Part shown: in pieces, positions 5,263 to 63,953 of the stretch
Numbering within the stretch: position 1 is the first letter of the stretch
How the letters are laid out: each line of letters starts with the position of its first letter
The notes under the pieces: model-generated
Told to the model about the DNA's origin: nothing
Database searches by the model: none
Seen by the model: the letters and a program-made list of their open reading frames with translations, nothing else
Source of the DNA: Tubiluchus corallicola
Lineage: Eukaryota; Animalia; Priapulida
Length of the DNA stretch: 64,000 nucleotides
Assembly (NCBI GenBank): GCA_030141605.1
Contig: JAQGDQ010000928.1
Span: 1-64,000 of the forward strand
Reading direction: 5' to 3'
Position numbers and translations under genes: made by a program

Positions 5263-5463
<201 letters not shown>

Positions 5464-8474: not shown

Positions 8475-10899
8475 AATTAACAATGCAAAAGCTCATGTGC
8501 ATTAAGTTTATAACAGTATGGCGGTATAACTCCTGTTCATTTAATTTTACAGCAAAAACTGAATAACAAAAGCAACCAACTAACTACCAAGATATAACGC
8601 CTTATGCCCAAAATCAATTTTATAGTGCCTCATTTTTCAATTGCCAAAGTTCATCATAATCAGTTGAGATGGATACACCAGGGGTTGTCTAGCAATGGTG
8701 ATTAATATGGCCATACTGGTTTCATAAATAAAACAGCTGCAGTTGTATGTATAGGTATATGCATATAGGTTTATAAAAGGTATATGCAAACACCAAAACA
8801 AAGACTAGTACTGGCCTAAGTGCTGTAATAAATTAAAACTTTGGCTAATGTTGTCATAAATGAATAGCAACAAACGTATACCATAAATGAATTTTTGATA
8901 ATGTCAAAGTAAAATAAATTACAAATATATAAAATATACACTGCTTATATTTTCCAGTTGTAAATGCATTTAAACACCAATTGTAAAAACGGACAGGAAG
9001 ATTGTATTAATTTAGTCATATACGAACATAACTATTTCTATAAAAAAAACTTAAGCTAATTAGTTAATTCATGAAGTCCATGTTCCATTAGTAGAAACTC
9101 AACTACGAAAATTAGTCGAATCAAAAGACCAGAATTGACAATACTTGTGCACTGAGACACGACTTACTTACAAATCTGTGCATTCTTTTGTCAGCTTTTA
9201 ACATCAATGTTTACAGTCTTGCATCAAATGAACTTGTACGTTTGTTCCTGCACGGGAACCATACCCTATATAATTCTGTGAACACTCAAATTTTTGTTTT
9301 ATTGCAATCTTTTATTTCAAACACCAAGCGTTTTAAATAGTATTAACTTTGTTACTCTTGTTACATAGTAATGCTCATGTTTATTGCAATATTTTTGTAC
9401 ATTGTGGTCACCATTGTTCTGCATCTGTCAATTCATAAATTATGTTTAAACCAAACACCAGAATAAAGACTATTATTGGGCTAAATGGCGTAATAAATTG
9501 CAGTTTTGGCTAATGCTGTCATATAAATGCATAGCAACAATGTTTGCTATAAATGAATTTTTGATAAAGTATATACACTGTTTAAATTTTTTGGTTAATA
9601 CAATATGAATGCATTTAAATAGTTGTAAGCATGGACAGGAATACCGTGTTCCTTTGGTCGTATACGTACATAATTATTTCTATAGATAAACTAAAGGAAA
9701 GTACGGCCACTAACTAATCAGTTAATTAATGAAATCCACGTTCCATCTGTGGAATGTATTAGCAGAAAATCAACTACCGGATAGAATTTACAAATACTGG
9801 ATGGTTAACTAATATAATCCATGACTTACTATTAATTTTCTAAAAAGACGGAGAAAGTAACGAAAACAAGATTGAAATAGGTAAAAAATAAACAAATTGT
9901 GAAGGGTGAGCTGCAATGGTGATTTAGTATTGGCAAGCCGTAAATAGAAACGTATTGTGAGCAATTCTGACATAGCTTAAAAATTCAAATTATCAATGTT
10001 GCAAACAAGCTTATACAATATTAACAAAATACAAATTTTTTGCGTACTCAACAATGCTGACCTCTCTTGTGTGTGAGAGTTAATTGATTATGCACTGATG
10101 GTAACTAAATAGAAATCAAACAATGGGAAAACAGCTAATTAATTATTGGTTTTGAGGAGCCTCATAGATTTGTTTCACTTGATTTTATTACTCACATAGT
10201 TTACGCTATTGATTTTCACACTAAAAGTAAATTATATGGCGTTATTAAACTCGTGCTAAAACCACGTAATGTTACATTCCATGTAATAATTATGTATGAG
10301 ATTAGCGTACGTACATTTCATAGTGGGTGTGATAGACAAATACTACCTTTTCTGTTTTAGTGTATTCATTTATTGTGTATTCATTAGTGTACTCATGCTT
10401 CATGAGACTGTTATTCGTGAGAATGAAGCCCGATTTTGGCAATTTGTTGTTGTGTCTAATTTTATACAGAAATATCTTGTATGTTACATGACAATATCAT
10501 CAGGAAATAACAGGCGACACCTGGCCATAAAAATAAAAAGTAACCCTCAAAACACATCAATGATAAAACATACGTATGATCCTTTTTTATTGTTATACGA
10601 TATCTTTTGTTTTCTATAACACCATCAGGAAAACAAAACAACTTAGTTATAGTCAGAAAGAAACTCCGACTGCAATTGTATTCTTGTATGTAATAATTAT
10701 GCTATTACATAAAACAGTGTTACAAATCAAAGCTTCTCTTGTGTCAAAGAAAGAATGAGAAAGGGTGTTTCTGTTAGGAGAACCGGACACTGATGAAAAG
10801 TGGCAGCACTTAGTTACAATCTACAATAAGAACACTGACAAGAAAACCTGTATAGATTTGATATAGAAGCACTAAGTGAGGTACAGTGTGCATTAAATT

Positions 10900-11704: not shown

Positions 11705-13900
11705 TTTAGATTTAATAGATTTATTTTCGCAATAAACATATACATATACATTACATGTGCATCGATAATCAGTTTTTGTTAATATAAAAATATGATACAA
11801 TTCATGAATTCTGCGCTAGAGACCTAAGAAGCTAGCTTATGGTAGGCCTCTAGAATTAGTTACGAAAAAAATTACAATATATACAGATACAATATTACAA
11901 TATATACAAATATGAATACGGGTGGGAAGTAATAAAAATATTATTATACTAGCGGGGAAGTTTTTGAAAATGAAAAACAACAAATCATGATTGAGTGATC
12001 AGTTATATGTTTCAAGTAAGTTTAATTTATTATTTTTTTTAAATATGGACAGCGAGTTGGCATTTTTAATAGCTGGAGCAATTGAATTCCATATGTAAGG
12101 GCCATTGTATTTAATAGGAAATTTTCTAACATTTGTGTTGCACTGTATGTAGTGATAGTTAAGTCTATAACATGTGCCGTAATTATGTATCTCGCCATTC
12201 AAACAAAAATAATCAGTAAATAAGGGAGGCGATAATTTATGAGATAATTTGTACATGAAAATGGCAGTTTGGAACTTATTAATGTCATAAATGTTTAGAA
12301 AGCTTAGTCTTTTAAATATTGGTGGTGTACGGTCCTGATAACCGGCAAATGTTATAGCTCGCACTATTTTCTTCTGAATCAGATGAATTTTTTTCAATCG
12401 ATTGGTGTATGTGCTTCCCCAAATAATGTTTGAATCATTAAGATATGGTAAAAAAACAGAATTATATAATAATACAAGTACTGATTTAGGCAATATGTGT
12501 CTAACTCTGTATATAATACCTATGGTTTTTGAGATTTTGCTTTCGATAAATCTAAGATGTTCTTGCCAAGTTAGGTGTTCATCTATGATGGTGCCTAAGA
12601 ACTTAGTATATTTTACTTGATTTATTGGGACTTCATCGATTTTTACTGTAAGATTACTAGGGATTCTTTTATTTTTATTTGTGAATACAATAAATTTGGT
12701 TTTTTCAATATTCAGCGATAACTTATTAGCTTTAAACTAGGTGGAGAGGTGTACAAGTTCTTGGTTTACAGTATTTATCATTGATTCATAGTTTGAGTGA
12801 CTATAGAATATGCTAGTATCATCGGCAAATAAAATGAAGTCTAGCAGAGTGGAGACATTGTGGACATCATTAATATAGAGAAGAAAAAGCAATGGACCTA
12901 AGATTGAGCCTTGGGGAACACCATAGTTAATTTGCTTCAAAGAAGAAAATGTGTTCTCAATTAGTACGGATTGTTTTCTGTTGTGTAAATAACTTGTAAA
13001 CCACTGTAAAGGTAGACCTCTGTCTGACACCATAGTTGTTTAATTTATCTAAGAGTATTTGATGGTCAATAGTATCAAAGGCCTTAGATAAATCAATAAA
13101 AATACCAATTGTAAATTCATTATTGTCAATTGCATTTGATATTAAATCAAGAAGTTCAAGTAGAGCCATGTAAGTGGAGTGGTTTTGTCTAAAGCCTAGT
13201 TGTTTGTTATATAATGTTTTTTTAATGAAACTTAGTAGTCTATTATACATTAGTCTTTCAAGAATTTTGGAAAAACAGGGAAGAATTGAAATGGGTCTTA
13301 TCACCAGTTTTAAAAATTGGATTAACCTTAGCTATTTTCAGAGAGTCTGGGACTATACCTGTTGAAAATGACTTGTTAAACATATAAAGTAGAGGTTCAG
13401 CAATACAGTTGATGGATTTTTTAAGGATAATTTATGATATACCATCATATCCTGTACTGTTTTTATTTTTTAAATTATTTGCCACATTTAATAGCTCCGT
13501 TTTGTCAATTGGAAGCAACTGCATTGAATTGCTACATGCATTTGGTAAGTATGAAAAATATGATGTATTTGTAGTGGGAATTTTTCCTGCTAGAGTTGAT
13601 CCTACATTTACAAAATAGTTATTAAAGCCATCCGATATTTCTTTTGATGTCATTAGGTTATGGTGTGATTTTTTGAAATGTGACTGTTCTATATGAGAAG
13701 TGTCTTTTTTATTAATAGCTAAATTTATAATTTTCCACGTTTTTCTCATGTTATTCACATTACTTTTAATTGTATTGGCATAATAATCTTTTTCGGCTTT
13801 TCTTAGTATTGACGTTAAGTTATTTCTATAAGTTTTATAAAGGTCAATGTTCAGATCAGTAGGGTTTTTTAATTTTAGTTTATATAATTTATTTTTGTCA
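11705..13900 (-). mobile_element. 5'-truncated, frameshifted CR1/L2-group LINE (reverse transcriptase ORF2 remnant)
   Basis: RPISILPCFSKILERLMYNRL, DLSKAFDTIDH, GVPQGSILGPLLFLLYIND and FADDT spread over several frames; AATAAATCT-type 3' tail near 11705-11725. Confidence 0.93.
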
Positions 13901-14834
13901 AAACAAACACAAATTCTAAACCTTCAACGCCATGTAAAATGAAGTTAAAAAACCTGCGAGGGCATGTCTAGGTTGAGGGTGTGAAAGACCAAAGTATGGA
14001 TTAAGTGCATGAAGTGGAGTCACAACTTATGTGCTGGAGATGAAAGCGATAAAACTATTGTATTTTCTGTGAAAGATGTTTTTATTGTTATCAAACAAAA
14101 TTGGCAAGTTCTTGTTAAATTTAATTGAATGCTAAATATCGCTTTGTATCAGCTTGTGTTATTTTAGGCTTAATTATCTATCTTTGATTCTGGATATGAA
14201 GAAATGTTTATTCAGACAGACGTTGACGGATGCAAGATGCGTTGTTTTTCGATACTGCCGGGTGAACAAAACATTGTGCATCTCTTTAGCAAAGAACATA
14301 AAATGGCTGCTAGATGTTGGCCGCACTCTTATCTCTTAGCAGGCACCCAGATAAAAATCTCAGATTGCCTGAACCCACTCCTATAGCTTACATACTATAC
14401 TGGTTAAGTTTCACATCTCTACTTTGTCACTTTTTGGCTGCCGACTAGTTTATGCACATAAAGACAAAGCTTGAGTTACAGAGTGGATACTGGGAGTTGG
14501 GAATACGTTACACCCTTTTCTACAGCGAAATGATTAAATACTAGTACTTGAGCATTGAAATTCAATCTTCAAATCAAGAAAATGTTTAATCTATTATTTA
14601 ATCATGATAAACGCTTTTCCAGTATTAAGTGTTTTAAAATGTATAATTTTTATCGGACTTGAAAATGGAGTAGTGTATGAAAAATCATCTTGTCTTCTTT
14701 TAAGCTTTACTAGCTCTGTATGCATTGCAGGAAATGTGTCTCTATAATAACTCTCTTTTAAATTTTTATTAATGGTCTATGTAAAATTGTGTTCACTTAA
14801 TAGCATTTTGCTTACAGTTTTATTTTGTTTGCAG

Positions 14835-32603: not shown

Positions 32604-33208
32604 TATGCACTAATTTGGTTTGTAATAATAGCAAAATAGGAGTATTTCTTAAAGAATATTTTTGTTGATAACCAAACAATTAGCTAGTCTAGTTTAGTTA
32701 AAGAATTTTCAATAAGTTTACTTCAAGCTGTGAAAATGTCACATTTTACAACACATCAGTAAGAAAGTAAAAATATTCAAGACCAATGCTTGCAACTTAG
32801 AAGGTGGCTCCATCTGAGGAAAACCCATAATTTCATTAGCCTAGAGGCCCCAGAAGGTGTGATCCGGCCCTCACCATAAAGGAACAATTCGTCTTTTGTA
32901 TTTATATTACTTGAAACCATGAATGAATGTACTAACACTAGTAAACTAAACCTTACATACATGTACCCATGTTTACGCAACCTAACAGCAAATTTGCACT
33001 TTAGTCTTTTAGCTTATTTCTGTTTTGTCGTGGTGTGGTCATCTTCAAATTTAGTAATTTGCAAGAAAGTTTTGTAATATACTCTCCGTAAGTCCAGTTT
33101 TGACTTTTATTTCTTACACAAAATGAATCAAACTAGCCTCTTCCGTACAGCGTGTGTGTTTATGTAGCTAGCTTAGTAAACTCAATGATTATAATTCTTA
33201 TCCTTCAG

Positions 33209-34184
33209 GTCACCAACGAGATCAAGAACTGAAGAAATCAACGAGATAATCTCTCGAGCACAGATGCATGCCAATGAGTATTTAGCGTCATCAACTAGAC
33301 CGACTGAACAAGATGATCCATTTCGAAACCTCACTGCTTCTCGAGATTTCCAAGTGCCTAGCTTCTCATCTTCATTGAAGGCTCCACATAACACCCCAAT
33401 ACAACAGCTTAGTCAAGCAAGAGTTCACAACTCTAAAGTACTTGATCTTGAGTGTTCATTGAATATTCCTTCTAGCCTAGCTTTGCAACGGCCAAGTCAG
33501 TCAAGGGGTTATTCCATTTCTCGTGACTCTCAAGTGCCTAGTTTTGTATCTTCATTAAAAAGTTCTTCCAACGTACCCATGCAGCAGCCTAGCCAGTCAA
33601 GGGATTATTCAACTTCTCGGGATTCTCCAGTTCATGGCCTTGAATCTTCATTGAAAGGTCCTTCTAGCACACCCATCCAGCAGCCTAGCCAGTCAAAGGA
33701 TTATTCAACTTCTCGGGATTCTCAAGTTCATGGCCTTGAATCTTCATTGAAAGGTCCTTCTAGCACACCCATGCCACAGCCTAGCCAGTCAAGGGATTAT
33801 TCCACTTCTCAGGACTCTCAAGTACATGGTCTTGAATCTTCATTGAAAACCCCTTCTAGCACACCCATGCCACAGCCTAGTCAGTCAAGGGATTATTCCA
33901 CTTCTCAGGACTCTCAAGTACACGGTCTTGAATCTTCATTGAAAGGTCCTTCTAGCACACCCATGCAACAGCCTAGTCAGTCAAGGGATTATTCCCCTTC
34001 TCGTGATTCACGAGTGCCTAGTCATGTATCATCGTCAAAAACTTCTACTAATGTGCCGATGCAACAGCCTAGCCAGTCAAGGGATAATTCCCCTTCACGG
34101 GATTGTCCAGTGCATAGTCGTGTATCTTCGTTGAAAACTTCTTCTAAATCACCCGTGCAACAGCCTAGCCAGTCAAGAAATTAG
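33209..34184 (+). CDS. Coiled-coil gene terminal exon with Ser/Pro/Gln-rich 32-aa tandem repeats
   Basis: TCCTTCAG acceptor, phase 2; 325-codon open frame; 96-bp unit (SRDYSTSRDSQVHGLESSLKGPSSTPMPQPSQ); AATAAA at 34313. Confidence 0.85.
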
Positions 34185-47010: not shown

Positions 47011-47789
47011 GAAATTTTTGTTTAATGTAATGTGTCACTTACCGATTAAAATTCAGTAGTCAAAGTGTGGAATAAATTAGAATATTGCGTATAAACAGAG
47101 CCGCATGTTCAAGCTTTAAACGCGTCAATATATTTTCTACAGAACAATACATTGATCTTTCCTGGTGGGACCACATACAATTTTGTGCCGAGAGTTTGAC
47201 CAAAATGACTGTTGTTGATGATGGTGGTGGTGGTGATGTTGGGGAACGACCTAATTTGTATAGACCTTCATGAAACTTTATACGAACACGAATTCTGCAT
47301 CGATTTCAAATACAGAACTTGAATTCTACAAAAATTGCCGATTGTTGCTAATTATTGTCTGTCAAAATGAGCGAGGATGAGTGTATAAATCAAAAGTGTC
47401 TTTGTCTTTTTGACTGACAAAGTCGGGAAACCTATCAGTCGTTTTGAATTCAAAATGGCAGCTATAACATCATTTTCGAAAAAAGCCTAAAGCTCCAATA
47501 GCTAGTCATGAAACTTTACAGGAATATGGCAGACAGAAAAACGGCATTTATCTGCTATCAGTAATAACACCATTTCCGAAAAAATGTATTGCCCTGCGGA
47601 ATTGCAAAGGATCGTCATGAAACTTTATAGGATACTGTTGTGGGTTAAGTTGCAAGCTGAGGCACCTACGCAGTTGTGACATCAGTCCACAAGGTTCCAT
47701 AAGATTTGTAAAGTTTCTGGAGTTAAGTAATTACGATCACAACACAAATATTCGACCGCCTGCACTGTAATATCTGTGTAGTAGATAGG

Positions 47790-48262
47790 AGTAAAGAGAA
47801 GATGATAATTGTATGATTAGTATTAGCAGTTCAGTAATGAAACGACTCTATGAAGGGGATATGAGAGATATGTAGAAATGAAGCCATGATTTTAGGTGCG
47901 GCTGTCATGTGACTGAATTCCATATACGGACATTGCCCGTCTGAATTGTCAGACTAGCAACAATTATAACGCATGCGCTGTGAGTCCAAAAAGCTGAAGG
48001 AAGCCAAGTGGAATGGGAGATCAGATCACGGGGGAATCTCGAGGAAGCAGGAACAGATCTTGGGCGGTTCGGCAGAGCTATGATATGTACTTTACCATGT
48101 AATATATTATTGTGAAATAAATGTGTTAGTCGCTCATCAATCCAGGTCTTATAGCTTTGTCACCACCTCACGTCAATAAACGGCTGCGGCCTCCTCAATA
48201 ATCCACCAACAAGTACTACCACTATACGACTCAGCTCATAAACATAACATATAAATTTTACT
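47790..48262 (+). repeat. 5' LTR (473 bp)
   Basis: Starts AGTAAA and ends TTTACT (terminal inverted repeat); AATAAA at 48116; followed by a TGG-starting PBS; start repeated at 63954. Confidence 0.9.
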
Positions 48263-48279: not shown

Positions 48280-48690
48280 CCGATTTTTCTACACGGAGAG
48301 AGATTCTAGTAACCTGGCTTCATTGCGTCCACAACCGCGCTGATCCAAGCAAACATGAATAAAGCTGTTTATTGACGTAATTGATCTGCCACACATCTTG
48401 ACGTCTACAACTTTGTCGTGAGTACATGCACGTTCTTTCTCCACCCTAATATTTTACTTATGTACCTTTCCTGGTTGTGTCAGTGAGTGTAAGAGATAAC
48501 GGTTGCTTGTATTTTAAAGTCAAGGAGGGTTGTAGATAAACTCTAACTTGTATATCAAACATTTTGGAGGGTTGTAACTCTAACTTGAATATCAAGATAT
48601 TGGAGGGTTGTAAAGATTAATCCTATAATGCACTGTAAATTGCGCAGCGCAAATAGATTTCTTAAATTTAATCTCTATTAAACTTTCTCA

Positions 48691-50019
48691 ATGGCGACTA
48701 AATCTCCAGCACCTGAAGCTCAGCATGTGTCTATTGATACCTATAATGCTTTAGCAAATCAATTTCATGAGTTGAGTCAAAGATGCGAGAATAGTGATAA
48801 AATCTTACAAACCCAAGCTGCTCAGATTTTAAAACAAGGAGAAAGAATAGGTGATTTGAAACGGGCTAGTGATCAGACCCAATTTTTATGTGAATTGGGC
48901 ACTCATCTAAAAGACACTAAAGTACAACAAACATTAATCCACCAAATTCAACACTTACCGAAATTTTCAGGAGAACCCGGCACTCTCAAATATAGAGATT
49001 GGATTGATAATATAGAGCAGTCTCTAAACTTAACTCCTACATTATTGACATCAAGGGACACCGCCTACAAGCATTTAATTTTGGGCACTATTACAGGGGC
49101 AGCCGCAAACTTTGTGAGTAAATACCCAAATCTCGAGACGAGAACAGCACAGGAATTACGAAACGCCCTAAGAGACCTATACGCGGACCGACTAGAAATT
49201 AATAAGGCTTTCATTGGATTAACTCGAGCTAGGCAACAGAAGGGGGAGACCATACAGGCTTTTGGCGACAGGATACTCAAATTAGCAAGAATAGCAAAAA
49301 CGTCAGAAGATGAAATAGTAGACCCAGCCTTTCAATCATTTTTGGTACAATTATTTACACTGGGTATACGAGGGGACCAGGCACGTCAATACTTACTTAG
49401 AGAGCCTCCCCGAACTCTAACTTTGGCAATCACAGAAGCCGCTAACAGGGGAGCCCCCGTGGAGATGTGCCAATATCTTAGATCGTGTTTTCCAGATAAT
49501 TCAGAACCTATGGAAGTTGATCTAATTTCACAAGAACTTCATGAAGACCCCTCAGACATGACTCCCCATACATTGCAGCTGTTTGCAGATTCATTACTTA
49601 AACAGGGACAAGTTTTAAGCAACGTACAAGAATCGGTATGTTCTCTTAATAAAACTGTCGCTACTTTGGCAAAACCAACACAAAATCAACAAGCAAGATT
49701 CGGTAAAGGACGTCAATTTGTACCAACGGGTTTTAATAATAATAATAACCGACAATTTCGGACAACCAATCGACCTAACGCTCCATTTCAACGTAATTTT
49801 AATAACTTTAATAATAGACAGTTCTACAACGAACGACCGAACACAGGTTTCAGGTTTCAACCGCGCGCTACGAATAGAAATAACAACTTCAATCAACGCG
49901 CGTCATGGATGCCTAGAGAAAACGCCCCGAATTTCAGATTTCAGAATAATAGACCATTTATTCCTAGGTTTAATAGGGAAAAACAATCCGGCAATTTTAA
50001 TAGGAGAACGGCAAACTAA
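48691..50019 (+). CDS. gag: Gag protein (442 aa)
   Basis: N-terminal coiled coil, LPKFSGE...WIDNIE capsid start, QKGETIQAFGDRI (MHR-like), EPMEVD motif, N/R/F-rich C-terminus without a CCHC knuckle. Confidence 0.93.
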   Translation: MATKSPAPEAQHVSIDTYNALANQFHELSQRCENSDKILQTQAAQILKQGERIGDLKRASDQTQFLCELGTHLKDTKVQQTLIHQIQHLPKFSGEPGTLKYRDWIDNIEQSLNLTPTLLTSRDTAYKHLILGTITGAAANFVSKYPNLETRTAQELRNALRDLYADRLEINKAFIGLTRARQQKGETIQAFGDRILKLARIAKTSEDEIVDPAFQSFLVQLFTLGIRGDQARQYLLREPPRTLTLAITEAANRGAPVEMCQYLRSCFPDNSEPMEVDLISQELHEDPSDMTPHTLQLFADSLLKQGQVLSNVQESVCSLNKTVATLAKPTQNQQARFGKGRQFVPTGFNNNNNRQFRTTNRPNAPFQRNFNNFNNRQFYNERPNTGFRFQPRATNRNNNFNQRASWMPRENAPNFRFQNNRPFIPRFNREKQSGNFNRRTAN

Positions 50020-51357
50020 AAGCGACCATTCATGAAAATTATCGGTCGTCAGAGTGGTCGCATGATCCTAGACCGAATTATTCCAATTCTTCTTTTAATG
50101 CACCCGACAAGTCTAAATTTCAACAAACTGTTTCAGAAACAAAATATATTTCTATTGCATCCATAGAAACGACGGCTCCATTTTGTAATATTAAAGTTCA
50201 TGATTATCCTTGTACAGCTATCTTAGATACAGGAGCAGAAGTTAGTGTTTTAGATAGCACCACTTTCCATAAACTCCCAACAGAAGTACAAAAAACCCTT
50301 ACGTCCCCTGAAGATAATTTTGTTTTAAATACTGCTTCAAAAAGCACGTTAAAAATATTAGGTAAATGGCATTTTAACTGTTACCATAGGAAAACAGAAA
50401 TTGGAAAATTTGTTTTATATCGTAGATCAACTTTCAAAACCTGTAATTTTAGGTTATAACTTTTTCAAAAACACCCAAGCAGCAATAGATATTGCCAACG
50501 GAATTTTAGTCATAAATCAAGAGGTACTTAAATTAGCTCCCCCGAGCGAAAAACGCATCTTTTTGGTCAAAGCCGCCACTGCTTTATTAATTCCCCCAAA
50601 ATCTTGTGCACTTGGCAAGGCGTATATCACAGGAAATTTTCATAAGAATGATGAATGCGTTCATACTTTAGAACTCCTTAAAGCGAACGTATTACCTATT
50701 TATAAAGAAACCACATGTGACATAGTTCCCAGTATTGTGAATATGTATAAGAAACAAGTTTATGTACCCTTATACAATGACGGTGAAAAGGATGTAATTG
50801 TATCTCGGAATGACATTTTAAGTCTTGCAGTTGAACAAGACCCAACAGTTATGTATCAAGTTTCAAATATTGCTAAATGCACGGAAGTTATGAACTCGAT
50901 ACAACAAATAGCTTCGCAACTTCAGAATGAAATTTTCCCTAAAATAAATACAACGGATAAGGGAAATTCCTTGCCAAAATATGTTCGTAGACTTCACGTT
51001 CAGACACTGGACCATGTGACGAAATACGGACCACCACAAGATTACAGATTACAACAGACACCTTACAAGACTGAAGCCATCTTGTATAATACTCCAAATA
51101 TAATACATTCCATTGATGAAAATATAGAAGCTAAACCTACTTCAAATAAACGAAGACGGAAACGGCTACAAAAGCATATTAAACAACAATTCGTTCGTAT
51201 GATGTCATCGGAAAGCTTACTAAAAGAATTAAAATTAGATAACATTACAGATCCCGTACTTAAGGAAAGACTCACTAAATTGCTTCTTAAATATGCAGAT
51301 TGTTTTGCTGAAGATCCCATAGACGCCCCGGTACGTCGGAAATTGAATTTAAAATAA
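50004..51357 (+). CDS. pol: Pol N-terminal part: aspartic protease and spacer, interrupted by indels near 50370 and 51325
   Basis: CTAILDTGAEVSVL (DTG at 50226) in one frame; the continuation ENLFYIVDQLSKPVILGYNFF (ILG motif) is in the next frame. Confidence 0.85.
50010..50079 (+). promoter_or_regulatory. Putative -1 ribosomal frameshift signal (G_GCA_AAC plus pseudoknot)
   Basis: The protease frame is -1 to gag and overlaps it by only 16 nt; heptamer 50010-50016, 5-nt spacer, stem 50022-31/50052-61, second stem 50037-47/50071-79. Confidence 0.75.
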
Positions 51358-51359
51358 GA

Positions 51360-54300
51360 ATGACAGATTATACACCTTATCACGCTAAACCGTACCCTAT
51401 ACCTATAAATTTGGAATCAGTGGTTAAACAGGCTATAGACACTATGTTAAAGGCAAAAGTCATAGTCCCAGCTGAGAATTCTAGTTATGCAAGTCCCATT
51501 CTGTTAGTTCCAAAAAAAGATGGAGGGAAGAGATTATGTGTAGATTTGAGACAAATCAATGCACGTACACTCCCTGACCCCTACCCACAACCGAACGTCG
51601 AAACATTATTTAAAGAATTAAAAGGTGCTAGTATATTCTCCTCTCTAGATATGACAAATGCATATTTTCAGATACCAGTTGAACCCGACAGTCAACCTTT
51701 TACAAGCTTTGTCAGCCCGTATGGCTTATTCCAATTTACAAAAATGCCCTTTGGTTTGAAGAATGCACCAGCTACATTTTCCAGATTAGTAGACCGCCTT
51801 TCACGTGACTTAATAACACCCACGGGTAGGAGACGCTTAATTGCTTATCTAGACGACCTTGTCTGTTGCAGTCCGGATATTGAAACCCATTTTTCCGATT
51901 TAGAAGATTTATTTTTGAGATTACGGAAAGCAAATTTAAAATGCCGACCCAGGAAATGTTTTTTCTTACAAAAATCTATTAAATATTTAGGCCACGTTTT
52001 GTCTGAACAAGGCATTGCCACAGATCCGGCAAAGGTGTTAGCTATTAAGAATGTTTCACCACCCACAGATATTAAAAAGCTAAGAACTTTTTTAGGTCTA
52101 GCCACTTATTATCGCAAATTCGTCAAAAATTTTGCGATAATAGCTGAACCATTATTAATGTTATTAAGGAAAGAAAATTCGTTTAAATGGACACATTTAC
52201 AACAAGAGGCTTTTGACAAACTGAAAACAGTTTTAACTGAAGCACCAATCTTGAAATATCCGGAGACTAATACAGGTTATATTCTCCATACCGATAGTTC
52301 GAACTTTGGCATAGGCGCTGTTCTTTCGCAAGAAGATGCAGCTGGAAATATCGGAGTGATCGCGTACATGTCGGAAACACTAAACAGCTCACAAAGATTA
52401 TGGCCTACATTTCAAAAGGAAGCATACGCCATCGTAGCTAGCTTTAGAAAATTTAAAACATATCTATATAACGCGCCAAAAATCGATGTTTATACGGATC
52501 ATGCACCGTTAATTTATTTGTTTACAGGTGCTAAATTAATGAATCAATTACTGTCTCGATGGGTAGTTGAGCTATTACAGTATAATATTAATATTTATTA
52601 CCAAAAAGGTTCAGAAAACACAGTTGCAGACGCGTTAAGTCGACTACCTGCATGTCCAGATTTTATAGGAACGCTCCCAATATCCTTTAGGGATTTTCAA
52701 CAACAGTTTCTACAATATAATTCGCCTGAAAGATTAGCAGAGAAATATAAATACTTAGTAGATCAGAAATCTACTTCAGAGCGCAGTAAAGGTATTAAAA
52801 CTACAGAGATGATTGCCCAAATCAGCCAACAAATGTCAGGTCAAACTGAATTAGAAAACTACTCAGATCAGACAATAATTAAAAAGGTACTACCTATAGA
52901 GGGTAACATTTTAGAAGAAAATATTTGGACAGGTGAAGACCCATTGTTAAACAGACCAACGGTCGAATCAGCTGGCAATGAAAACGCTCCAACTCAAATT
53001 CCATTACCAGCACAAGAAACCTCCTCATCGGACAACCCAGCCACTCAATTAGAACAAGGTGAAACTGAACATGACCTGGACGAATTCGATGGATTACCTT
53101 TAGATCTAACGACAGTACAGCAATGGCAATTATCAGATCCTAAATTAGCACCAATTATTCATGCCTTAACCTCACCTACAGAAACTGATATTCAAACAAA
53201 ACATGCAGAAAATTTCTACATTGATGAGCAGGGATTATTGTATAAAGTTGAAAATGACTCCATTAATTTAGAACAGGAAAATTTACGGTTAGCCATTCCA
53301 GCGAAATTAACAAGTATTTTAATTAGAGGCTTTCATGACGAATTTGCTGGACATTCTTCAGTAAAAAGAACATATGAGCGTCTGAAGAAACGATATTACT
53401 GGCCCGGCATGTTTGTACAAATTAAGAAACATGTAGATCAGTGTTTGAACTGTCAAACACGGCGTATGAGACCGCATCGTAAACCTTTAGGTATCACAGA
53501 ATTAGCCAGTAAACCCTTTGAAAATGTATATTTGGATATCTTAATTTTACCCCAGACAGAATCTGGTTATAAATATTTACTAGTTTTAATAGATCAATTA
53601 AGTAGCTGGATAGAGGCCTTTCCTTTAATTGATAAATCAGCTAACTCAGTTGCTAATGTCATCCTTACAGAATATTTCTCTCGTCACGGAGCAAGTAAAA
53701 CCTTTTTCAGTGATCAGGGAACAGAATTCAATAATGCTTTATTAAAAGCTTTACTAAAAGAATTCAGGGTTGTTCAAGTATTAGGAACACCGTACCACTC
53801 GAATTCACAAGGCCAAGTTGAACGCGCTAATCGCACTATTATCCAACAATTAGCATATGTTTGTCAACAAAAGTCCACAGATTGGATTAAATATCTGCCG
53901 CATGTATTATTCGCCCTTAGAACAACTCCAAATTCAATAACGGGGTACAGTCCATTTTTTTTAATATATAATCGCCACTGCGATTTGCCACTCGATAATA
54001 TCCTTCAACTTAGATCTAAATATTACGGATCTGATCCAATTAGACTGGATCTAAATCGTTTGCATGAAGCCTTTCTGCAAACCCGACAACTGATGCATAA
54101 AAATCGTCTAGCCCACAAAAAACGCTATGATAAAAATACGCATATACCTCTTTTCAAAATTGGTGATCCAGTTTTCTTACGTAAAGGTAATTTAGACCCT
54201 GCTGAATCACATAAACTATGTCGACCGTGGGCCCCATATTATGTAATAGTTAATAAAATTGATGAATCCCGTCTTAGAATTGTCCATAATAACACAGGCA

Positions 54301-54819
54301 AGTTTAAAATAGTGCACCCAAACCGGTTACGAAAGGCAAATTTGCAAGGAAATCAATGGCTGCTACCAACAGGAACGTCGTCGCATTCCAAGCGAACTTC
54401 AAAACGAAAATCCACATTACATTACGTCCCGGAAACTCTTTCAGACACTGATTCAAATAACCTAATAAATGAGATCCAACCTGACCAAACCCCCATCGCA
54501 ACCCCGCCCCCGAACTTGGATTTCTATGAAAATGAACCCCAACCTCAACCTAACATTTCACCCAGTTCGTCAAATTCTACACTTCATTCTTTGCCAACTT
54601 TAGAACGTATAGATCCGATGGAAGAGGAGAATTTAATTCAAACCGAAACAGATTATGCAATGCCAGTAGACAACTTAATTCCCCCCCTCGCAAACCGTTC
54701 TATAAAACGCTCATCAGACGCCGACACGCNNNNCTGGTAAGCGTGCCAGAATTAATTTAATTAAGTTGCAAAAACCAGGCATCTTTAAAACATTACGCCG
54801 AAAATTTTGCAAACAATAA
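51360..54819 (+). CDS. pol: Pol: reverse transcriptase, RNase H, integrase
   Basis: RLCVDLR, MPFGLKNAPATF, YLDD; TDSS...TDH...VADALSR; HHCC zinc finger, DDE core (LDIL, SDQGTEF, QVERANR). There is an NNNN gap at 54730-33; the likely true end is ...GKRARINL...FCKQ* at 54819. Confidence 0.96.
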
Positions 54820-56592
54820 CTAAAATAATATTAATGTTACAGTTAAAGTTACCATGTATTATAAGGTCATACTTTAACGTTTAATATTACTGTTACAATC
54901 AAAGCATTTTTATATTATAAGGTAATACCTTAGTGCTATAAAATAGAATAGTACCATTTTAAGGACGAGAACGTCATCAATCATGTTTCTTTATGTATAA
55001 GGTAAGTACAAGTTTTATGTATAACGAAAGTGTTTAGAGTATGAACATTTTTCGATTCCCGGGAGAGCATTTCCCGTGTGTGACGTTTAAATGTCACATA
55101 CGGCATGCTTATGCATATCGAGGCTGTTCATGCAACTATTTTATTAAAACATTTAGTACGAGTTCAAAACATTTAGTACCAGTTCAAGCCCGGACACGAC
55201 TTAACACCACAAGAATATATATCGGTAAGTACATTACGAACATTAACATGAAGCCGTCCCCCCCCCTCACTCATGACTTTACATAGAAGGCGATCAGACT
55301 TTCATTTTCTTAATTTATGACACGCGGACTCTTAAGAAGTTTCACTAAGAAACCGCGCTGAGCCACGCAGGCGTCGTGTTTCATTCATGACTTTCACTTT
55401 CGTAATTTACGACCCAGGATTCCCAAGCTTTAAGAATACTTCTCTCCTAGAAGCCATATAAAGATCGTGTTTCATTCCTACTGATACATGCTGGGTACAT
55501 ACACGGCAACGAACCATATGAGCGCTAAAAGTCTTAGCCCATAAAATGGCCCCCCGTGAATGACGCCCAATGTTATGCTTCTAAACGTCACATAAACTTA
55601 CACTGGGGCTTACCACGCCTAAAGACACTCAGAGACTTTTATTTAATGCGCTTCCCTTCAGATAATGTAGCGTATAAATTTACTTAACAACTACACAAGT
55701 TCCAGAGAGGGATATTGCTTAAATGATTCAAGAATATTTGCACAACGTTCTAATGATTGACAGAATAATTGTGTATTGCTGTAACGATTTTAAAGAATAT
55801 TTCAAAAAGAGTATTTAGATATTGTTTTATCGACATTAGGAGGATATCTTACGGTATATCACTAAGTGTAATTAAATAAATACTTAACACAGCAACGAAC
55901 ATTTACGCTGTATTACTCTATAAAAAGAATTTCTATTCAACAAGCCCCATTGAAGTACTAGAACGAATAACCAACATATTAAACTAAGATTATAGCTAGA
56001 TTAAACTCGGAATTTCTAATTCAGATAACCGACTTGAATAAATGTATTGATCAAACGTTTTAGTCTAGAGTTTTAATTACTACAATCATTTCAAAACGGA
56101 TAAAAATGACCATTTATAACTTATACATTTTAAATTCTAACGACCATTTACGAGAAAGTTAAAACCAACTAACTGTCAGAAAATATAATCCATCTCACGT
56201 TTAGCTATAATTCAACTCACCCCTAGTTAATTACGGCAAATTACGCGCATCACTAGACAATGATAAAAGATTATATATAGTCTAGACAAGTGTCTGTTAA
56301 AACCGAACGCGCGGACTCATCAACGCAGAGTATTATCACCAAATTAGTAATTCTTCATGCAGTAGAAAAAAAAAGGTATTTTCCTTGTAGACTCTAATCA
56401 GCGAATATTCGATTATTGTATAATGACTTATGATGCTAAATACAAACATACCTTCCTTGCGATCCGCCTTGATCCATAATGCATAGTCACACTTCTATAT
56501 ATATATGATATGTCCACATAAAGGATAAATATTTTTTTTTCTTTTCAAATTTTAGGATTTTTTTTAAATTTTTTTTTAATTTTCCACTTTTC

Positions 56593-57147
56593 TTAGCACT
56601 TCACCGCTAACCACCTTTCTTCCGTTCCCTCCTCCCAGTTGCGTTTATATACTCTCATCACCCGTGCCAGGTCCCATATTGTTATTATGTTATGTGCCGC
56701 GGTGCAGATACAAAAATTCTCTCGGTTGATAAAGCGGACCCGGCCGGGCGCGTATTTGGTCAGTAAATTTGCCATAACTGGCATCCCATGAATACTGCTC
56801 AGTTTTAGCACCACTAGTTCTTCCTGTAAAAGGAATATAAATCTTTATTAAAAGTCCTCGAGACAAATTTTCTTTTAACTGCAGAATTAGCAATCTAGTG
56901 ATTTTAACATAATAGTCCTTACCTCAAAAAAAAAAAACAAAACAAAAAAAAAACCATTACTTACTCCATCAATGATGGACTTGCCGCAGAAAAGCTCGCA
57001 TGTGCCAGGCAAGTACGTCATTTTTAGAGCACGACTAAGTTGGTCATGCAACTGTGCCCGTTCATCCAAAACATCGTAAAAGTTCCCGCTCGTAATTTCG
57101 AGCTCTACTGCCAATAAGTAGGCATCTCTCGGTACTTCACATTCCAT
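56593..57147 (-). CDS. Putative two-exon antisense gene inside the element (exons 57147-56965 and 56823-56593; 137 aa, unknown function)
   Basis: AAAATGG start, GGA|GTAAGT donor, TTCCTTTTACAG acceptor joining in frame; GC-richer coding blocks between AT-rich flanks. Confidence 0.6.
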
Positions 57148-57970
57148 TTTTATTATTATTTTGAAACTAGTAAAACTGGTGAAACTAGAAAAAAAACTGA
57201 ATACTTTGCACAACTGATTAAGACGCCTTGACCACACGAACAGAAATTACGAAGAGGGACTGACCAACAACTGCAAGTCTCTTTTATGTGAGAGGCCTGG
57301 GAACTTTCGTATACTGCGTATAGAATTTGACTCCGTTTGGGCCCCAATGCTCATTACTAAGCGATAAAAGTACTAATAGTGAAAACCCTAGACGCAAAAC
57401 CGAAGCTTAACGACCATTCTGATCTACAACTTATCCTGAGAAAGGGGACTGCAAAATCTTTTCCCACGGACATTAACTGGCTTTAAGAAGAAAGATGAAT
57501 TGTTTTTACTATTAGCTGTCCAGGCCAAAATTATTGCAAGTGGACACGTGCTTCACTCGCCCCCCTTTGATCAACGCTGATCGGATTTCAAGACTCACCA
57601 AATAAGTCGAGATTGTTAATTGAGCCACACTTATTTACGCATGCGCACATGCGCCAGGGATACACCTTTAAAATAACTGTCCGTTACCTACTAAATCCAT
57701 TCATCCAGATTTTTCTTATAGTAAGGGACTCTGAATAGACGTTAAGATAATTTTGCCTTGAATACACATTAATCTTAATAATTTTTGCTGTGAATACATG
57801 TTAATCTCACCATCTCATAATTTGAATTTTTGTGAAAAAAAAAAGAGTATGGAACTTTCAGGAAATACGTAAGTTTATCTTAAATTTATTCTAACCTTAC
57901 TAATTTAGAGTCATAGAAATGATCTGTATAGGACAACCTGAATAATATTCCTTTTGAATTTTTTTTCCAG

Positions 57971-60586
57971 GACCAGTACTACAAACCTTTTATACAAAAT
58001 CCTAATATTGGCAATATTCTTAAATCTGTACATTCTAATTCCTTACAATCATTCCCAAATCCAGCTCCCTTTAAAACAGGCCCAGGGGTTATATTTAAAC
58101 AGAAATTAAATACTCCAGTTTCTAATGCAAGATGGCTACTTATTGCGCCGATACAGTTGGACCACATTCAAGAATTTCTCACTAGAACGCTTTCCGAAAT
58201 TCAACAATTAAGATTAATTAAAAAACCTGTCACAGTGATTAAAGCCTTTAAAACTGCTATTAAAAATAGAATCAGAAATCAACAATTTCGTTTAAATTCC
58301 ATTAAGAATTTAATAGCCTCGTCTGCCCATGAATCTCACGTCGTCAAACGAAGCATTTTTCCGAATCTAGGAAAGGCATTCAAATTTTTAATCGGAACCG
58401 CGAGTGAAGAAGATCTTCGAAATCTTCAAGATCAGATTACGAGTATCTTTAATACGCAACAAAACACGCAAGATATTTTAGAAAATAACCTAGCCCTTAT
58501 CAATAGCTCGCTAATTCGCTCTGCTAGAAATACAGAGTTAATTTATGACTTAGTGAACGCATCAGTTCAAACTCGACATTACATTAACAAACTGTCAAAA
58601 CAGTTTACTGATGACTTGACTAAAACTCAACATAAATTGTTTACATTCTTGCAAACAAATTTGCTGTTTGATCACTTTATCTATAGCTTAGAAATCATTG
58701 ATCAAGAATTGAATTCGTTATCCCAAGGTTTACATCAACTAATTCTTAATAAATTACCCCCAACTTTAATAACCCCTATACACCTTCAAAAGTCTCTTAA
58801 ACAAATTGAGGACCAGCTACCACAGAGCCTAATATTTCCAGCCGATATAAATAATCAATTATTCTATTATTACGAAACAATGTCGGCATTACCTATTCAA
58901 ATTCCCGGAGGGTTTGCTATCCTAACAACATTAGATTTATATCATGTCAATCACATCTATCAAATTTTTGAAGCAATATCGATCCCAGTCCGTCGGACAT
59001 CAACCAATATTAATAAACCTGTTTATCTATATAACCAAATTGATCATCAGTATATTGCTACGAATATTGAGCAGTCACTATATTTTTTCCCAGCCAAAGA
59101 TGAAGCCTTTGCTTGTATTCAAAGCCCAAAACGTATCTGTAAGTTAGCACCAACGCCAATTTTTCCTGCAGATAGAATAGAATCATGTACAGCGGCATTG
59201 TTTTTCAAGGACACTATTAAAATAGATTTATTTTGTGATCAACGAGCAAGAATTATTAATAAACTTGGACCAGTTATTATACCTCTAACTGAGAATACTT
59301 ATTATATTAGCCCGAGTTTTGAAATTCAAGCCATAAAATCTTGTTACGTACCCCGCCAGGCTCATAAGATTGGCACCCCCCTCACCATCAAGAACCCGAT
59401 GATCCTGCAGTTAGAATCAGGGTGTGGCCTATCTTCTAAATATGCAAATTTACCAATATATTTTAAGAATCATTCAGACCTTACTTTAACTCAAACGGAC
59501 ATCCAAACAATCTTAGATACGGCACTTAATTTAAGTACTTGGAACGTTGATTTATTAGGAAGTAATTTTACGATAGGAACACTTCAAACACTGCAAGCTC
59601 TGCCGTCACGAATGACAGAGGATGAACCACTTGACTTTTCTCTTAAAGGTAGTCAAAATCTCTTATTAAAACGACAGAAGTTTTTGGACCACACTGATGA
59701 ATTATTCAAAACCAAACCGGTTGACTTTTCCAATCATAAGGGTGCATCATTGACAACATACTTATTTATAGCACTTATTATAATCTTTATTATAATTTAT
59801 GTGACTTGTCGTACGAAAATTAAGACAGCATGTTGCCCCCGTCTTATAAACACCAAACCAACTTCTACCAAGGCTAAACCACCCCGCGGTACCCATTCTA
59901 ACAAACCCAATACTCCGCCTATGACACTTCACCCTAACCCAATGACCCGTAATAGACTTCCTCAATACCAGCCTCCCAAGGAATTTATCAAAAAACCCGA
60001 ACCACGGGAACCAATTGTTCGTTATAACCCAAATAACGATTCTGTTGATTTCGTATCCGTCTTTACATTCCATTCAAGAACAGTAAAACTTCGTTTATTT
60101 CTTTTATTCTATAGTTTTACCCACGAGGCCGAAGATCACCTTTCGAAAATAGATGACAGCATAGATAAATTTCTACAAGAACTTAACGAAACCTACGAAG
60201 TCAATTATAACTTGATTCGTAACCTTTCAACACCTGAGACACCCCAAACGCCCCAATCCAACTCCACCTATGAGAATACTGAACAAATTATGCCTTTAAC
60301 CTTTTCCCTCGCACCAGACACTCCGTTATCTCCCCAGGAAATATATCACTTTTTAAAATCACCACTTCCACCAATCCCAGACTCGTTAACAGCTGCTTCC
60401 AAAGACACACAGACTGACTTGACTTGTCAACCCAGCGAAAAAATTGTTTTTACTACAACTAAACTGTCACCCACTGTTTGTACTAAACAGACACAGACAG
60501 AATTTTCGTTTCCACCAGATCTTCTTGTTCTTGTGAAACGCCCTTTATCGGAAAACGAGTTCTTTCATAAATTCGCTCCCATATAA
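57971..60586 (+). CDS. env: Envelope fusion glycoprotein (baculovirus F / errantivirus env-like), probably spliced at its 5' end
   Basis: The frame opens after a TTTTTTTCCAG acceptor; GVIFKQ...WLL N-terminal motif; KR|SIFPNLGKAFKFLIGTASEEDL cleavage site and fusion peptide; heptad region, Cys-rich region, TM LFIALIIIFIIIYV, long cytoplasmic tail. Confidence 0.88.
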   Translation, partial: DQYYKPFIQNPNIGNILKSVHSNSLQSFPNPAPFKTGPGVIFKQKLNTPVSNARWLLIAPIQLDHIQEFLTRTLSEIQQLRLIKKPVTVIKAFKTAIKNRIRNQQFRLNSIKNLIASSAHESHVVKRSIFPNLGKAFKFLIGTASEEDLRNLQDQITSIFNTQQNTQDILENNLALINSSLIRSARNTELIYDLVNASVQTRHYINKLSKQFTDDLTKTQHKLFTFLQTNLLFDHFIYSLEIIDQELNSLSQGLHQLILNKLPPTLITPIHLQKSLKQIEDQLPQSLIFPADINNQLFYYYETMSALPIQIPGGFAILTTLDLYHVNHIYQIFEAISIPVRRTSTNINKPVYLYNQIDHQYIATNIEQSLYFFPAKDEAFACIQSPKRICKLAPTPIFPADRIESCTAALFFKDTIKIDLFCDQRARIINKLGPVIIPLTENTYYISPSFEIQAIKSCYVPRQAHKIGTPLTIKNPMILQLESGCGLSSKYANLPIYFKNHSDLTLTQTDIQTILDTALNLSTWNVDLLGSNFTIGTLQTLQALPSRMTEDEPLDFSLKGSQNLLLKRQKFLDHTDELFKTKPVDFSNHKGASLTTYLFIALIIIFIIIYVTCRTKIKTACCPRLINTKPTSTKAKPPRGTHSNKPNTPPMTLHPNPMTRNRLPQYQPPKEFIKKPEPREPIVRYNPNNDSVDFVSVFTFHSRTVKLRLFLLFYSFTHEAEDHLSKIDDSIDKFLQELNETYEVNYNLIRNLSTPETPQTPQSNSTYENTEQIMPLTFSLAPDTPLSPQEIYHFLKSPLPPIPDSLTAASKDTQTDLTCQPSEKIVFTTTKLSPTVCTKQTQTEFSFPPDLLVLVKRPLSENEFFHKFAPI

Positions 60587-60646
60587 TTTATATAAAGTTT
60601 GATTCAACGCTAATTTGTGATGTATAGATATGTTTCATTTTGCAGC

Positions 60647-60805
60647 ATGAATACGCTACGATCTAACCCCCCTACCGACGAAGTTATATCACGTCGCGCG
60701 TATATTACAGTCGTACTTTTGACACTACTTGTATTCTGCATAATAATAACGGGAATACTGTTTGCAGTCTGGGAAAGAAAATGTGAACTGCTGGGAAAAC
60801 AATAA
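60647..60805 (+). CDS. Small single-pass membrane protein (52 aa), putative accessory ORF
   Basis: ATG directly after a TTTCATTTTGCAG acceptor; hydrophobic segment YITVVLLTLLVFCIIITGILFAVW flanked by basic residues; AATAAA overlaps the stop. Confidence 0.55.
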   Translation: MNTLRSNPPTDEVISRRAYITVVLLTLLVFCIIITGILFAVWERKCELLGKQ

Positions 60806-61256
60806 AAGGGATGAAGAATTGAAATGTTGCCTTGAATAATATATGAGTAATTGTATAATGAGTATGACTGGATACCTTAACCTATTTTCCATATATCATT
60901 CTTTCCTTTTTTACCTTAACCTTAAAACCCTGCCTAGCACGTGCAAGAAGCCAGCCGGCTTCATCTCAACAAGACAGCTATCGACCGCCGGAAGTCAGCA
61001 CGGAAATCCATCGTACACACCGAGCGACGCAGCCAAGCCAAGCCAGTGATCATAGTAGTACACAAACTTTGCAGCTGTCTTTGCTAATGTTTGCTAATCG
61101 CTCTAGAACTAGTCTACGTAAACTACAGAACAACTATTTTGTGAAATTGTGTAAACCAGAGCCCTAGTTGATATATGGTGAACAGCATCAAAGAAAACTT
61201 TGTTCCGGTGAACAGCATTAAAAATAACTTCGTTCTACGTTTCATTTACCAGTGCA

Positions 61257-61616
61257 ATGAAACTAAATATGAAACTAAATATTCGAGTATTAGCAACTTA
61301 CACATATCAAAAACCACCTTTCAGGAAAACCTACTACCTCGTAAATTATAAAGGAGCTCAGTTTATTATCTTAGAATTACTACATACGAAATATTTTAGA
61401 AGATATCCGTTGAGTGTAATTAACTTTAAACCGTACTTTGATCGATATTTAACAATGAGGATGATTAAACATCGTGTTTCGCAAAATGTGAATCAAGCAA
61501 CTGTACCTACTATAAATTGTCAGGACTTTATAAATTGTCAGGACTTTATGCGCTGTCAGAACTATTTTAAACACTTAATGGGAGAACCACATATTTGTGT
61601 CGACGATATAATTTAA
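61257..61616 (+). CDS. Orphan 119-aa ORF
   Basis: ATG-initiated ORF between env and the receptor ORF; RKTYYLVNYKG weakly recalls the chromodomain YLVKWKG motif; internal INCQDF duplication. Confidence 0.4.
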   Translation: MKLNMKLNIRVLATYTYQKPPFRKTYYLVNYKGAQFIILELLHTKYFRRYPLSVINFKPYFDRYLTMRMIKHRVSQNVNQATVPTINCQDFINCQDFMRCQNYFKHLMGEPHICVDDII

Positions 61617-61711
61617 AAGAAACCTTTAGACTAACATATGTTGATGGTGCAAGAACATTCGGCCTTCGCTACATTATAAAGACGTTTAAAACGTTGTGTA
61701 ATTGTTTAGCC

Positions 61712-62578
61712 ATGTCAGACACGGTTATACAAAGCTGCCTAGTCTGTTCTGCAGCAGCTTTCATTAAACACTATGGCAAATTAACGTGTAACGCGTGCCG
61801 CTATTTTTTTTACAGAAAGCAGCACGTTAAAAATGTATGTTCTAAACGTGGCTGTGTTGGAAATTGTCGTATTACCCCAGACACCAGACGTCATTGTCAA
61901 CTTTGTAGATTTAACAAATGTATAGCCGTTGGTTTACAGCCAACTTCACCTCGTTTTGGGAGGTCATCTAAATCTCGTCAGAATCGTCTCAAAGCTAAAC
62001 TTAATTATCGGGTCAAATCTATTAACCGGATGGCAAACCAACTTCTACCTGTCGCCGTAAGAATCACAATTCAGAAGGCATGCCAACAACCCGAATTACA
62101 AACATTACCTGTCGAAGACCAGAAAATTCTACTAAAATCTGGCGCTCCAAGTATAATTCTAATTTGGCTAAATACACTTATTAATTTCGTGTCGCTTGCC
62201 CAAGAATTAGTGCCGCAACATCAACTCAGTGATTTCGATGAGTTTACACAACAACTTTATAGAACTGCACAGGCGATTATGCTAGTTAGACCAACGCAAG
62301 ACGAGTTGGAAATCTTAACAAACATCTTACTCTATGACTCAACTTGCCTTAATTTACAACGTCCAGACCGAGTGGCTCATTTTCACTCTCGGTGGATAGA
62401 ACGATTTAATTGTGAAATAGCACTTCACTGGCCTTCTAGATTCACCTCGCAAATGGGGGCTTTAAGCAACTTCCAGGCTTTATATCAAGCAGTAATCGCT
62501 TTTGCGACACGACTGAAGTCTGTTCAGCTCAACTTGGATCAAAACACTTGTTTTCAGACAGAGGAAGAGAATGAATGA
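61712..62578 (+). CDS. Intronless nuclear receptor (C4 zinc-finger DBD plus shortened LBD), NR1-like, 288 aa
   Basis: GCCATG start; C-x2-C-x13-C-x2-C with HYG; C-x9-C-x2-C-RFNKC-x3-GL; RFGRSSK C-terminal extension; LBD signature LPVEDQKILLKSG and H8-H9-like TQDELEILTNILLY. Confidence 0.92.
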   Translation: MSDTVIQSCLVCSAAAFIKHYGKLTCNACRYFFYRKQHVKNVCSKRGCVGNCRITPDTRRHCQLCRFNKCIAVGLQPTSPRFGRSSKSRQNRLKAKLNYRVKSINRMANQLLPVAVRITIQKACQQPELQTLPVEDQKILLKSGAPSIILIWLNTLINFVSLAQELVPQHQLSDFDEFTQQLYRTAQAIMLVRPTQDELEILTNILLYDSTCLNLQRPDRVAHFHSRWIERFNCEIALHWPSRFTSQMGALSNFQALYQAVIAFATRLKSVQLNLDQNTCFQTEEENE

Positions 62579-62579
62579 A

Positions 62580-63290
62580 AAATGAATAACATTACTGTAT
62601 ACTTATATTTTGAACTTTAAGAATAATGTTCAACATTTTGATCATTTTGATACAATTTTAACATGGAGATTCAATGAATAAATGAATAACATTGTGTGTT
62701 CAATGTATAATATGATGTTAAAGGAATAATATTGAATAACCGTGTGTATTCATATATGATGTCAAATGAAAGATATTGAATGACACTGTGTACTTATATT
62801 ATGGATGAAATGATGAAATATTGAACAACCGTGTGTACTTATATAGGATGTCAAATGAATGATTGTGTATGTATATTATGAAATGATGAATAACGTTGTA
62901 TACTTATATTTTGAAATGCGTCCAATAATGTTGTGTTCCTGTATTTTGAAATGAAATGTTGGATAGTATAATGTTGATTTTGCACGACGTGTGTATTTAT
63001 ATTGTATAATGATTGATGATTCATCGATGTCAGATTGTCATTTATACTTTTATGACCGTGATGGATGACGGATGATTTATTGATGCAGATTGTCACTTAT
63101 ATTTTATGACGGTGACTAATGATTCAGATTGTCACTTATATTTTATGACGGTGACTAATGATTCAGATCGTCACTTATATTTTATGACGGTGATTGACGA
63201 CTCAGGTGACGACTCAGGTTGTCATTGATATCGTTTGATAATGATTGATGATTCAGGTTGTCAGCTGATGACTTATAGCTGATGACATAT
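62580..63290. repeat. AT-rich degenerate tandem repeats in the element's 3' untranslated region
   Basis: For example the 39-bp unit GATTCAGATTGTCACTTATATTTTATGACGGTGACTAAT, about 3 copies at 63086-63195, and recurring GAATAAC..TGTGTA units. Confidence 0.75.
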
Positions 63291-63942: not shown

Positions 63943-63953
63943 AGGAAGAGAGG
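63943..63953 (+). other. Polypurine tract
   Basis: AGGAAGAGAGG, preceded by a T-run and immediately before the 3' LTR start. Confidence 0.8.

Follow-up and report, generated by a model that had tools for sequence, protein, structure and literature searches.

A probable antisense accessory gene, predicted to be spliced, between pol and env of a Ty3/gypsy element of Tubiluchus corallicola

Invertebrate gypsy elements that carry an env gene are treated as simple gag-pol-env genomes. Extra genes on the opposite strand have been reported from gypsy elements of plants and fungi, where antisense open reading frames termed aORF-3R lie between pol and 3' LTR; described cases are gene23 of Grande, the ORFs of rice RIRE2, the TRP28 ORFs of Retand, ORF2 of PvRetro13 and brtn of Boty (PMC7264820, PMC11963269), and gene23 is described as driven by a promoter of its own, located upstream, and as giving a product found in the nucleus (PMC7264820). 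Antisense protein genes are also reported from env-carrying LTR elements, namely HBZ of HTLV-1, a deltaretroviral bZIP factor whose transcription starts in the 3' LTR and which acts in trans as a regulator, and APH-2, APH-3 and APH-4, and spliced forms exist among HBZ and the APH genes (PMC10186651). Small additional proteins in the elements of animals include CERV of the Caenorhabditis elegans element Cer1, which is reported to be made from a spliced mRNA and to regulate RNA export (PMC10309623), and the element-specific sORF1 and sORF2 of the MDG1 group (PMC11952523) and ORF3s of bdelloids (PMC5408684). The 'ancient errantiviruses', env-carrying Ty3/gypsy elements of invertebrates, are described with the organization LTR-gag-pol-env and an F-type env; their survey applied a first filter of 1 kb between pol and env and 10 kb overall, and later manual steps of 3-5 kb downstream (PMC13524379).

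We analyzed a stretch of 64,000 nucleotides of the priapulid Tubiluchus corallicola (here called the window) and found an antisense gene that lies between pol and env, on the strand opposite to them and inside matching LTRs. The additional antisense ORFs known from gypsy elements in plants and fungi resemble it more than HBZ does. Like the aORF-3R genes it is antisense to gag-pol and located between pol and the 3' LTR, it has no clear homologs, and it is conserved as coding sequence among copies (13 of 21 listed exon variants silent, p = 0.002, with exon 2 alone not significant). Unlike them it has an animal host, an env gene in the same element, a position between pol and env, a predicted intron in its coding sequence and a product of only 137 amino acids; the TRP28 domain of Retand (PF04195) is absent from it, as is any other Pfam domain. 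The brtn gene of Botrytis Boty presumably has many exons. With HBZ, to which an earlier reading made from the sequence alone had likened it, the gene shares the antisense orientation and the predicted splicing, but that likeness does not extend to a bZIP domain, to the position (the ATG lies 5' of env, at a distance of 6.8 kb from the 3' LTR) or to the element class, which is Ty3/gypsy. No sequence likeness to CERV, sORF1/sORF2 or the ORF3s was found, and it differs from them in being an antisense product without a membrane segment; CERV and the bdelloid ORF3s are presumably encoded in the sense orientation. The sORF2-like candidates are all described in the forward orientation (PMC11952523). 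With the surveyed errantiviruses the element has in common the LTR-gag-pol-env order, an env that is probably of the F type and an animal host, and it differs from them in its length of more than 16 kb and its pol-env spacer of 3.2 kb (PMC13524379). The words 'accessory', 'nuclear receptor' and 'reverse strand' are absent from the main text of that survey (PMC13524379), and the openly accessible main texts searched contained no description of a spliced antisense gene in an env-carrying gypsy element of an animal.

The gene sits antisense in the 3.2-kb pol-env spacer of this Ty3/gypsy element of more than 16 kb, in which two LTRs, a PBS and a purine tract are present. The 5' LTR (47787..48261, plus strand, about 475 nt) is identical in 49 of 50 nt to the start of the 3' LTR, and a TGG motif resembling a PBS comes next, at 48262. 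The 3' LTR begins at 63951 behind the purine tract and runs off the window at 64000, so that only its start is included. A gag-like ORF on the plus strand (48682..50019, 445 aa from stop to stop) was assigned from its position and open frame, and no Pfam family matched it at the cutoff. The pro-pol region (50004..54740, plus strand) is distributed over three frames in this copy and matches the Pfam families RVP, RVT_1, RT_RNaseH, Integrase_H2C2 and rve in the order PR-RT-RH-IN. Its matches are Ty3/gypsy-type polyproteins, and the RT relatives are 33-46% identical among the 120 matches listed; judged by these comparisons, there is no close family member in the protein collection. Four N at 54730-54733, at the very end of pol, are the sole gap in the window, and it is across this gap that pol is joined to the spacer. 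The spacer also contains, on the plus strand at 54993-55286, a mini-exon-like ATG TAT AAG|GTAAGT with a donor at 55002, followed by a Cys/His-rich frame from an ATG at 55041 with a donor at 55225, which could possibly be a spliced sense accessory gene.

Downstream of the spacer, the env-like ORF (57932..60586, plus strand, 884 aa) is probably of the F type: residues 100-642 match Pfam Baculo_F with an E-value of 1.6e-4 and a score of 20.8 bits, which is below the cutoff of 24.1, and there is a hydrophobic stretch near the C-terminal third. The tail after the predicted membrane segment (59800-60586) is an unusually long Pro/Thr/Ser-rich region of about 250 aa. The ORF is without its own start or signal peptide near the 5' end (57440-57980, plus strand), and around 57500-57545 there is a hydrophobic, signal-like stretch whose frame differs from that of the nearest ATG in this copy. 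A donor-like site at 57869 and an acceptor-like site ending at 57971 suggest that env may be expressed from a spliced message. A nuclear-receptor-like ORF follows on the plus strand, shortly before the 3' LTR (61571..62578; zf-C4 E-value 6e-14, Hormone_recep E-value 0.02, below the cutoff); of its 421 word-sharing candidates none matched at E<=0.001, and the literature search gave no precedent for it. This ORF is possibly more surprising than the antisense gene. A 119-aa ORF with an ATG at 61212-61616 (plus strand) overlaps the start of the receptor-like frame and is a further candidate accessory gene, without a Pfam or PHROG match. Elsewhere in the window are a host gene for an amiloride-sensitive sodium channel (DEG/ENaC) with exons on the minus strand (4227-8492; Pfam ASC E-value 1e-19 for 8082-8492), the broken reverse transcriptase of a non-LTR retrotransposon, spread over several frames (11999-13923, minus strand; family assigned by eye), a host exon that contains a Ser/Pro/Gln-rich repeat of 32 aa with a 96-nt unit (33195-34184, plus strand), and many other minisatellites between 22.5 and 37.8 kb.

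On the minus strand, the predicted coding exon 1 (57147-56965, 183 nt) consists of 61 open codons in phase 0 that start at an ATG at 57147, which is preceded by an A-rich context. A predicted GT-AG intron of 141 nt (56964-56824) is T-rich and in phase 0, and the predicted coding exon 2 (56823-56593) contributes 76 open codons and a TAA. Read from the sequence, the exons would join in phase 0 into a product of 137 aa; these coordinates, the acceptor at 56824 and the product length agree with those of the sequence-only reading. That reading had called the donor perfect, which holds for the intron half at 56964 (GTAAGT, the consensus) but not for the exon half, which ends in the non-consensus GGA. 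The acceptor CAG ending at 56824 has 11 of 14 pyrimidines, and a motif like a branch site, TTAAT, precedes it by 23 nt. The intron length is divisible by three, so that both exons lie in one frame, and four in-frame TAA codons occur within the intron. GC content changes at the predicted boundaries (0.46 in exon 1, 0.25 in the intron, 0.48 in exon 2 and 0.30 in the flanks). A pattern of an ATG with at least 55 open codons, GTRAGT, 60-300 nt, a pyrimidine-rich YAG and at least 70 open codons, with thresholds that were chosen after the gene had been seen and lie just under the observed values, occurs once on the minus strand of the element, at the antisense gene itself. The same pattern occurred in none of 1000 Markov spacers and none of 200 Markov 16-kb elements, and it is absent from both strands of 47.7 kb of host DNA. 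The Atlas recognition scores of 2814 and 2490 exceed the line at 2300, a score that does not prove a gene to be real.

Copies of the element allowed the reading frame to be examined for selection. Four DNA runs from two studies contain the stretch, and no run containing it is recorded as RNA. Four of the six runs listed were compared over 56000-57900 (1901 nt), to which 119 contigs from run X1 and 31 from run X4 aligned, from more than 99% to less than 90% alike. No contig from runs X5 and X6 aligned, which is no proof of absence. These two runs bear the same species label as the best-matching run, yet they contain next to no words of the element (54800-62600); the element is possibly present in a patchy manner among such samples, absence again not being proven. 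From 153 variant places we analyzed 40 picked by support, bearing in mind that the contigs are unphased and the events non-independent. The exons, which make up 414 of the 1901 nt, contain 21 of these 40 variants (p = 2e-5), all of them present in both studies. Third codon positions account for 14 of them, first positions for 6 and second positions for 1 (third-position excess, p = 0.002), and 13 of the 21 are silent where 6.3 would be expected with transitions and transversions weighted apart (p = 0.002). The crude pN/pS over the exons is about 0.2 for the listed variants. The two shifted minus frames would have 5 and 3 silent variants of 21. The plus frame that has its third positions in common with the antisense frame also has 13, but it is interrupted by stops and shows a 6:1 ratio of second over first positions, unlike coding DNA, although this last contrast is not significant (p = 0.125). 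A single variant, at 56647, appears to create a stop; it equals the variant at 56649 of the same codon in depth and contig count in both runs, from which we infer that the two changes are linked and together make a sense codon. None of the 12 listed indels (of 50 in all) lies in the exons (p = 0.052). Judged by these listed variants, the frame on the minus strand is under purifying selection. The claim of the sequence-only reading that this is a real antisense gene is supported by the copy variation together with the GC contrast and the chance test, and we consider it very probable that the gene is coding.

The predicted protein has no relative in the libraries searched, and by sequence it is an orphan. 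HMMER over 1.84 billion representatives found no homolog; its sole match, a repetitive 1571-aa protein in which one 25-residue stretch was matched ten times, was rejected. A word search with exon 2 gave two candidates, none at E<=1, the PDB sequences gave no match at E<=10, and no Pfam family matched the antisense product at E<=10, the best PHROGs match having an E-value of 0.035. The viral contigs yielded one locus of 17 stretches, which was rejected as a phage ORF with a short common word, and none of 7 with the RT as query. Among metagenome contigs the antisense gene was found in none of 592 stretches; the integrase query gave 33 loci at 22-36% identity, and at E<0.7 neither the two exons nor env nor the receptor ORF has a match in any of them. 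Rfam gave one match, below the gathering score, and no tRNA was found.

The gene might be real but a nested passenger, derived from a host gene or from some other mobile element, inserted backwards and carried along, and selected for its own or former role, independently of the element's cycle. The base composition agrees with such an origin, since GC3 is 0.49-0.55 in the antisense exons versus 0.29-0.33 in the sense ORFs, and so does the nuclear-receptor-like ORF, which shows that the element takes up cargo. Moreover, no listed contig bridges the antisense gene to pol or env. Against this, no host homolog was found among the 1.84 billion representatives, the gene is not flanked by terminal repeats or a duplication, depth is similar over the exons and the flanks, and in both studies the gene is present in copies that range in identity from about 80% to 99%. 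We regard a nested passenger as unlikely.

The second alternative concerns the extent of the coding sequence, and it arises from an uneven distribution of the silent-site signal. In exon 1, 8 of the 9 listed variants are silent (p = 8e-4), versus 5 of 12 in exon 2 (p = 0.21), where 6 variants fall on third, 5 on first and 1 on second positions; the conservation that the sequence-only reading proposed to check was found over the gene as a whole and in exon 1, but exon 2 alone does not reach significance. A score of amino-acid composition, for which the sense ORFs of the element served as training set, places exon 1 above 167 of 180 stop-free host segments and exon 2 at an ordinary 103 of 180. 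Only exon 1 might be coding, either as an unspliced frame of 86 aa, or through another donor or acceptor, or as an internal exon reached from an upstream exon through the acceptor-like T8-CTAG that ends at 57186, 38 nt 5' of the ATG, the frame of exon 1 being open upstream as far as 57246. In-phase splice sites for such forms are available: a second donor, GAG|GTAAGG, lies inside the intron at 56922, and at 56879 the previously proposed alternative acceptor (8 of 14 pyrimidines) is indeed present. It opens a 62-aa tail with a high composition score (above 168 of 180), which belongs to an ORF at 56690-56923. In copies from both studies, however, a variant at 56728 puts a stop into the frame of this tail (depth 31.7/57.9 and 17.8/51.8), and although this stop removes only about 12 of the 62 residues, a second product with this tail is not supported by the sequences. 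The unspliced tail crosses an indel-prone T tract, and exon 2 has the GC content of an exon and is still aligned by diverged contigs down to about 79% identity; ungapped pieces of about 79%, 84% and 92% identity align on the exons (16 pieces listed, 141 more exist). One contig departs from the window inside the intron, at 56906. Contig boundaries at the donor carry no information, because 56917-56960 was skipped as a repeat in the contig comparison. A gene restricted to exon 1 is slightly less probable, in our view, than a passenger, and judging from the sequence the predicted junction of 56965 to 56823 is likely to be used. That the region makes no protein, being kept as an RNA or DNA element or as a chance pair of GC-rich open frames whose antisense transcript, if any, acts as RNA, would fit the lack of homologs in any library searched and the antisense non-coding transcripts reported for micropia, TART and IAP (PMC7264820), but the variants point to coding by their three-base periodicity and their excess of silent changes, and no Rfam family reaches the gathering score. 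This is the least probable of the three alternatives.

Neither a membrane segment nor a leucine zipper is present in the product of the two joined exons, in which at most two leucines per exon are in heptad register. Single-sequence AlphaFold2 models are of low confidence (pLDDT 31 for the frame read through the intron and 48 for exon 2), and in both of them helices alternate with short strands. Inspection of these models by eye suggests a possible alpha/beta plait with a C-terminal helix, in which the intron would fall at a strand-turn-strand. The fold comparison called for by the sequence-only reading was carried out with the exon 2 model, and its matches stayed within background, the best viral match having an E-value of 0.32 and the best PDB match a Z-score of 6.6, with none at 8 or above. 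Many of these background-level PDB matches are small alpha/beta plaits (ribosomal S10-like, HMA, IS200 transposase), and another, judging by the title of its entry, is adenovirus E4-ORF3. Among Atlas look-alikes, WD40 matches to exon 2 at 0.94 were rejected, as they have only 144-156 of 256 features in common with it, Pfam is blank and there is one WD-like dipeptide context only; rubrerythrin-like matches to exon 1, below 0.9, were rejected as weak.

Taken together, we favor on balance a working antisense accessory gene of an env-carrying Ty3/gypsy element, which is predicted to be spliced and to encode a soluble protein of 137 aa that may well act in the host cell as a regulator. The gene would be transcribed from integrated DNA by a promoter of its own, most likely inside the element, at about 57.2-57.6 kb, and directed away from env. 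Motif scanning places a likely 5' leader and promoter region at 57148..57620 on the minus strand, with the initiator-like TCAGTT at 57200 and 57217 (53 and 70 nt before the ATG), CCAAT at 57344, CACGTG at 57545 and a donor-like GTGAGT at 57598. A GC-richer stretch separates the antisense ATG from the env region, the two being arranged head to head. Comparable promoters have been reported for gene23 of maize Grande, which has its own antisense promoter (PMC7264820), and for Tor elements, in which env is expressed from a promoter in pol or in the pol-env space (PMC4402516). The acceptor at 57186 would leave room for a non-coding first exon farther up, even in the 3' LTR. The 141-nt intron would be removed from the antisense mRNA only; because the sense genomic RNA has no intron at this place, it would be copied at every reverse transcription, and the survival of an antisense intron, as proposed earlier, indeed follows from established retroelement biology. 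Finally, the protein may act in trans, probably in the nucleus, to regulate expression of the element or handling of its RNA. Action in trans is proposed because the protein is without a membrane segment and looks alpha/beta; this is the weakest step of the scheme, it draws on analogy with the described systems, and provided that the gene is coding we judge a regulatory role to be about evenly balanced against other roles.

A more far-reaching proposal is that of an 'invertebrate complex retrovirus', a 16-kb env-carrying gypsy element in which a spliced antisense gene of an undescribed family stands back-to-back with env and is driven from an internal two-way promoter, together with a captured nuclear receptor through which signals of the host would reach the element; this is speculative and we consider it rather doubtful as a whole. 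The first filters of the errantivirus survey would pass over an element with such a spacer and such a length (PMC13524379). The orphan protein may found a new small family. If the favored reading of a working antisense accessory gene is true, env-carrying gypsy elements can hold regulatory accessory genes, as complex retroviruses do, and the antisense strand would be a place where a retroelement keeps real introns and new genes.
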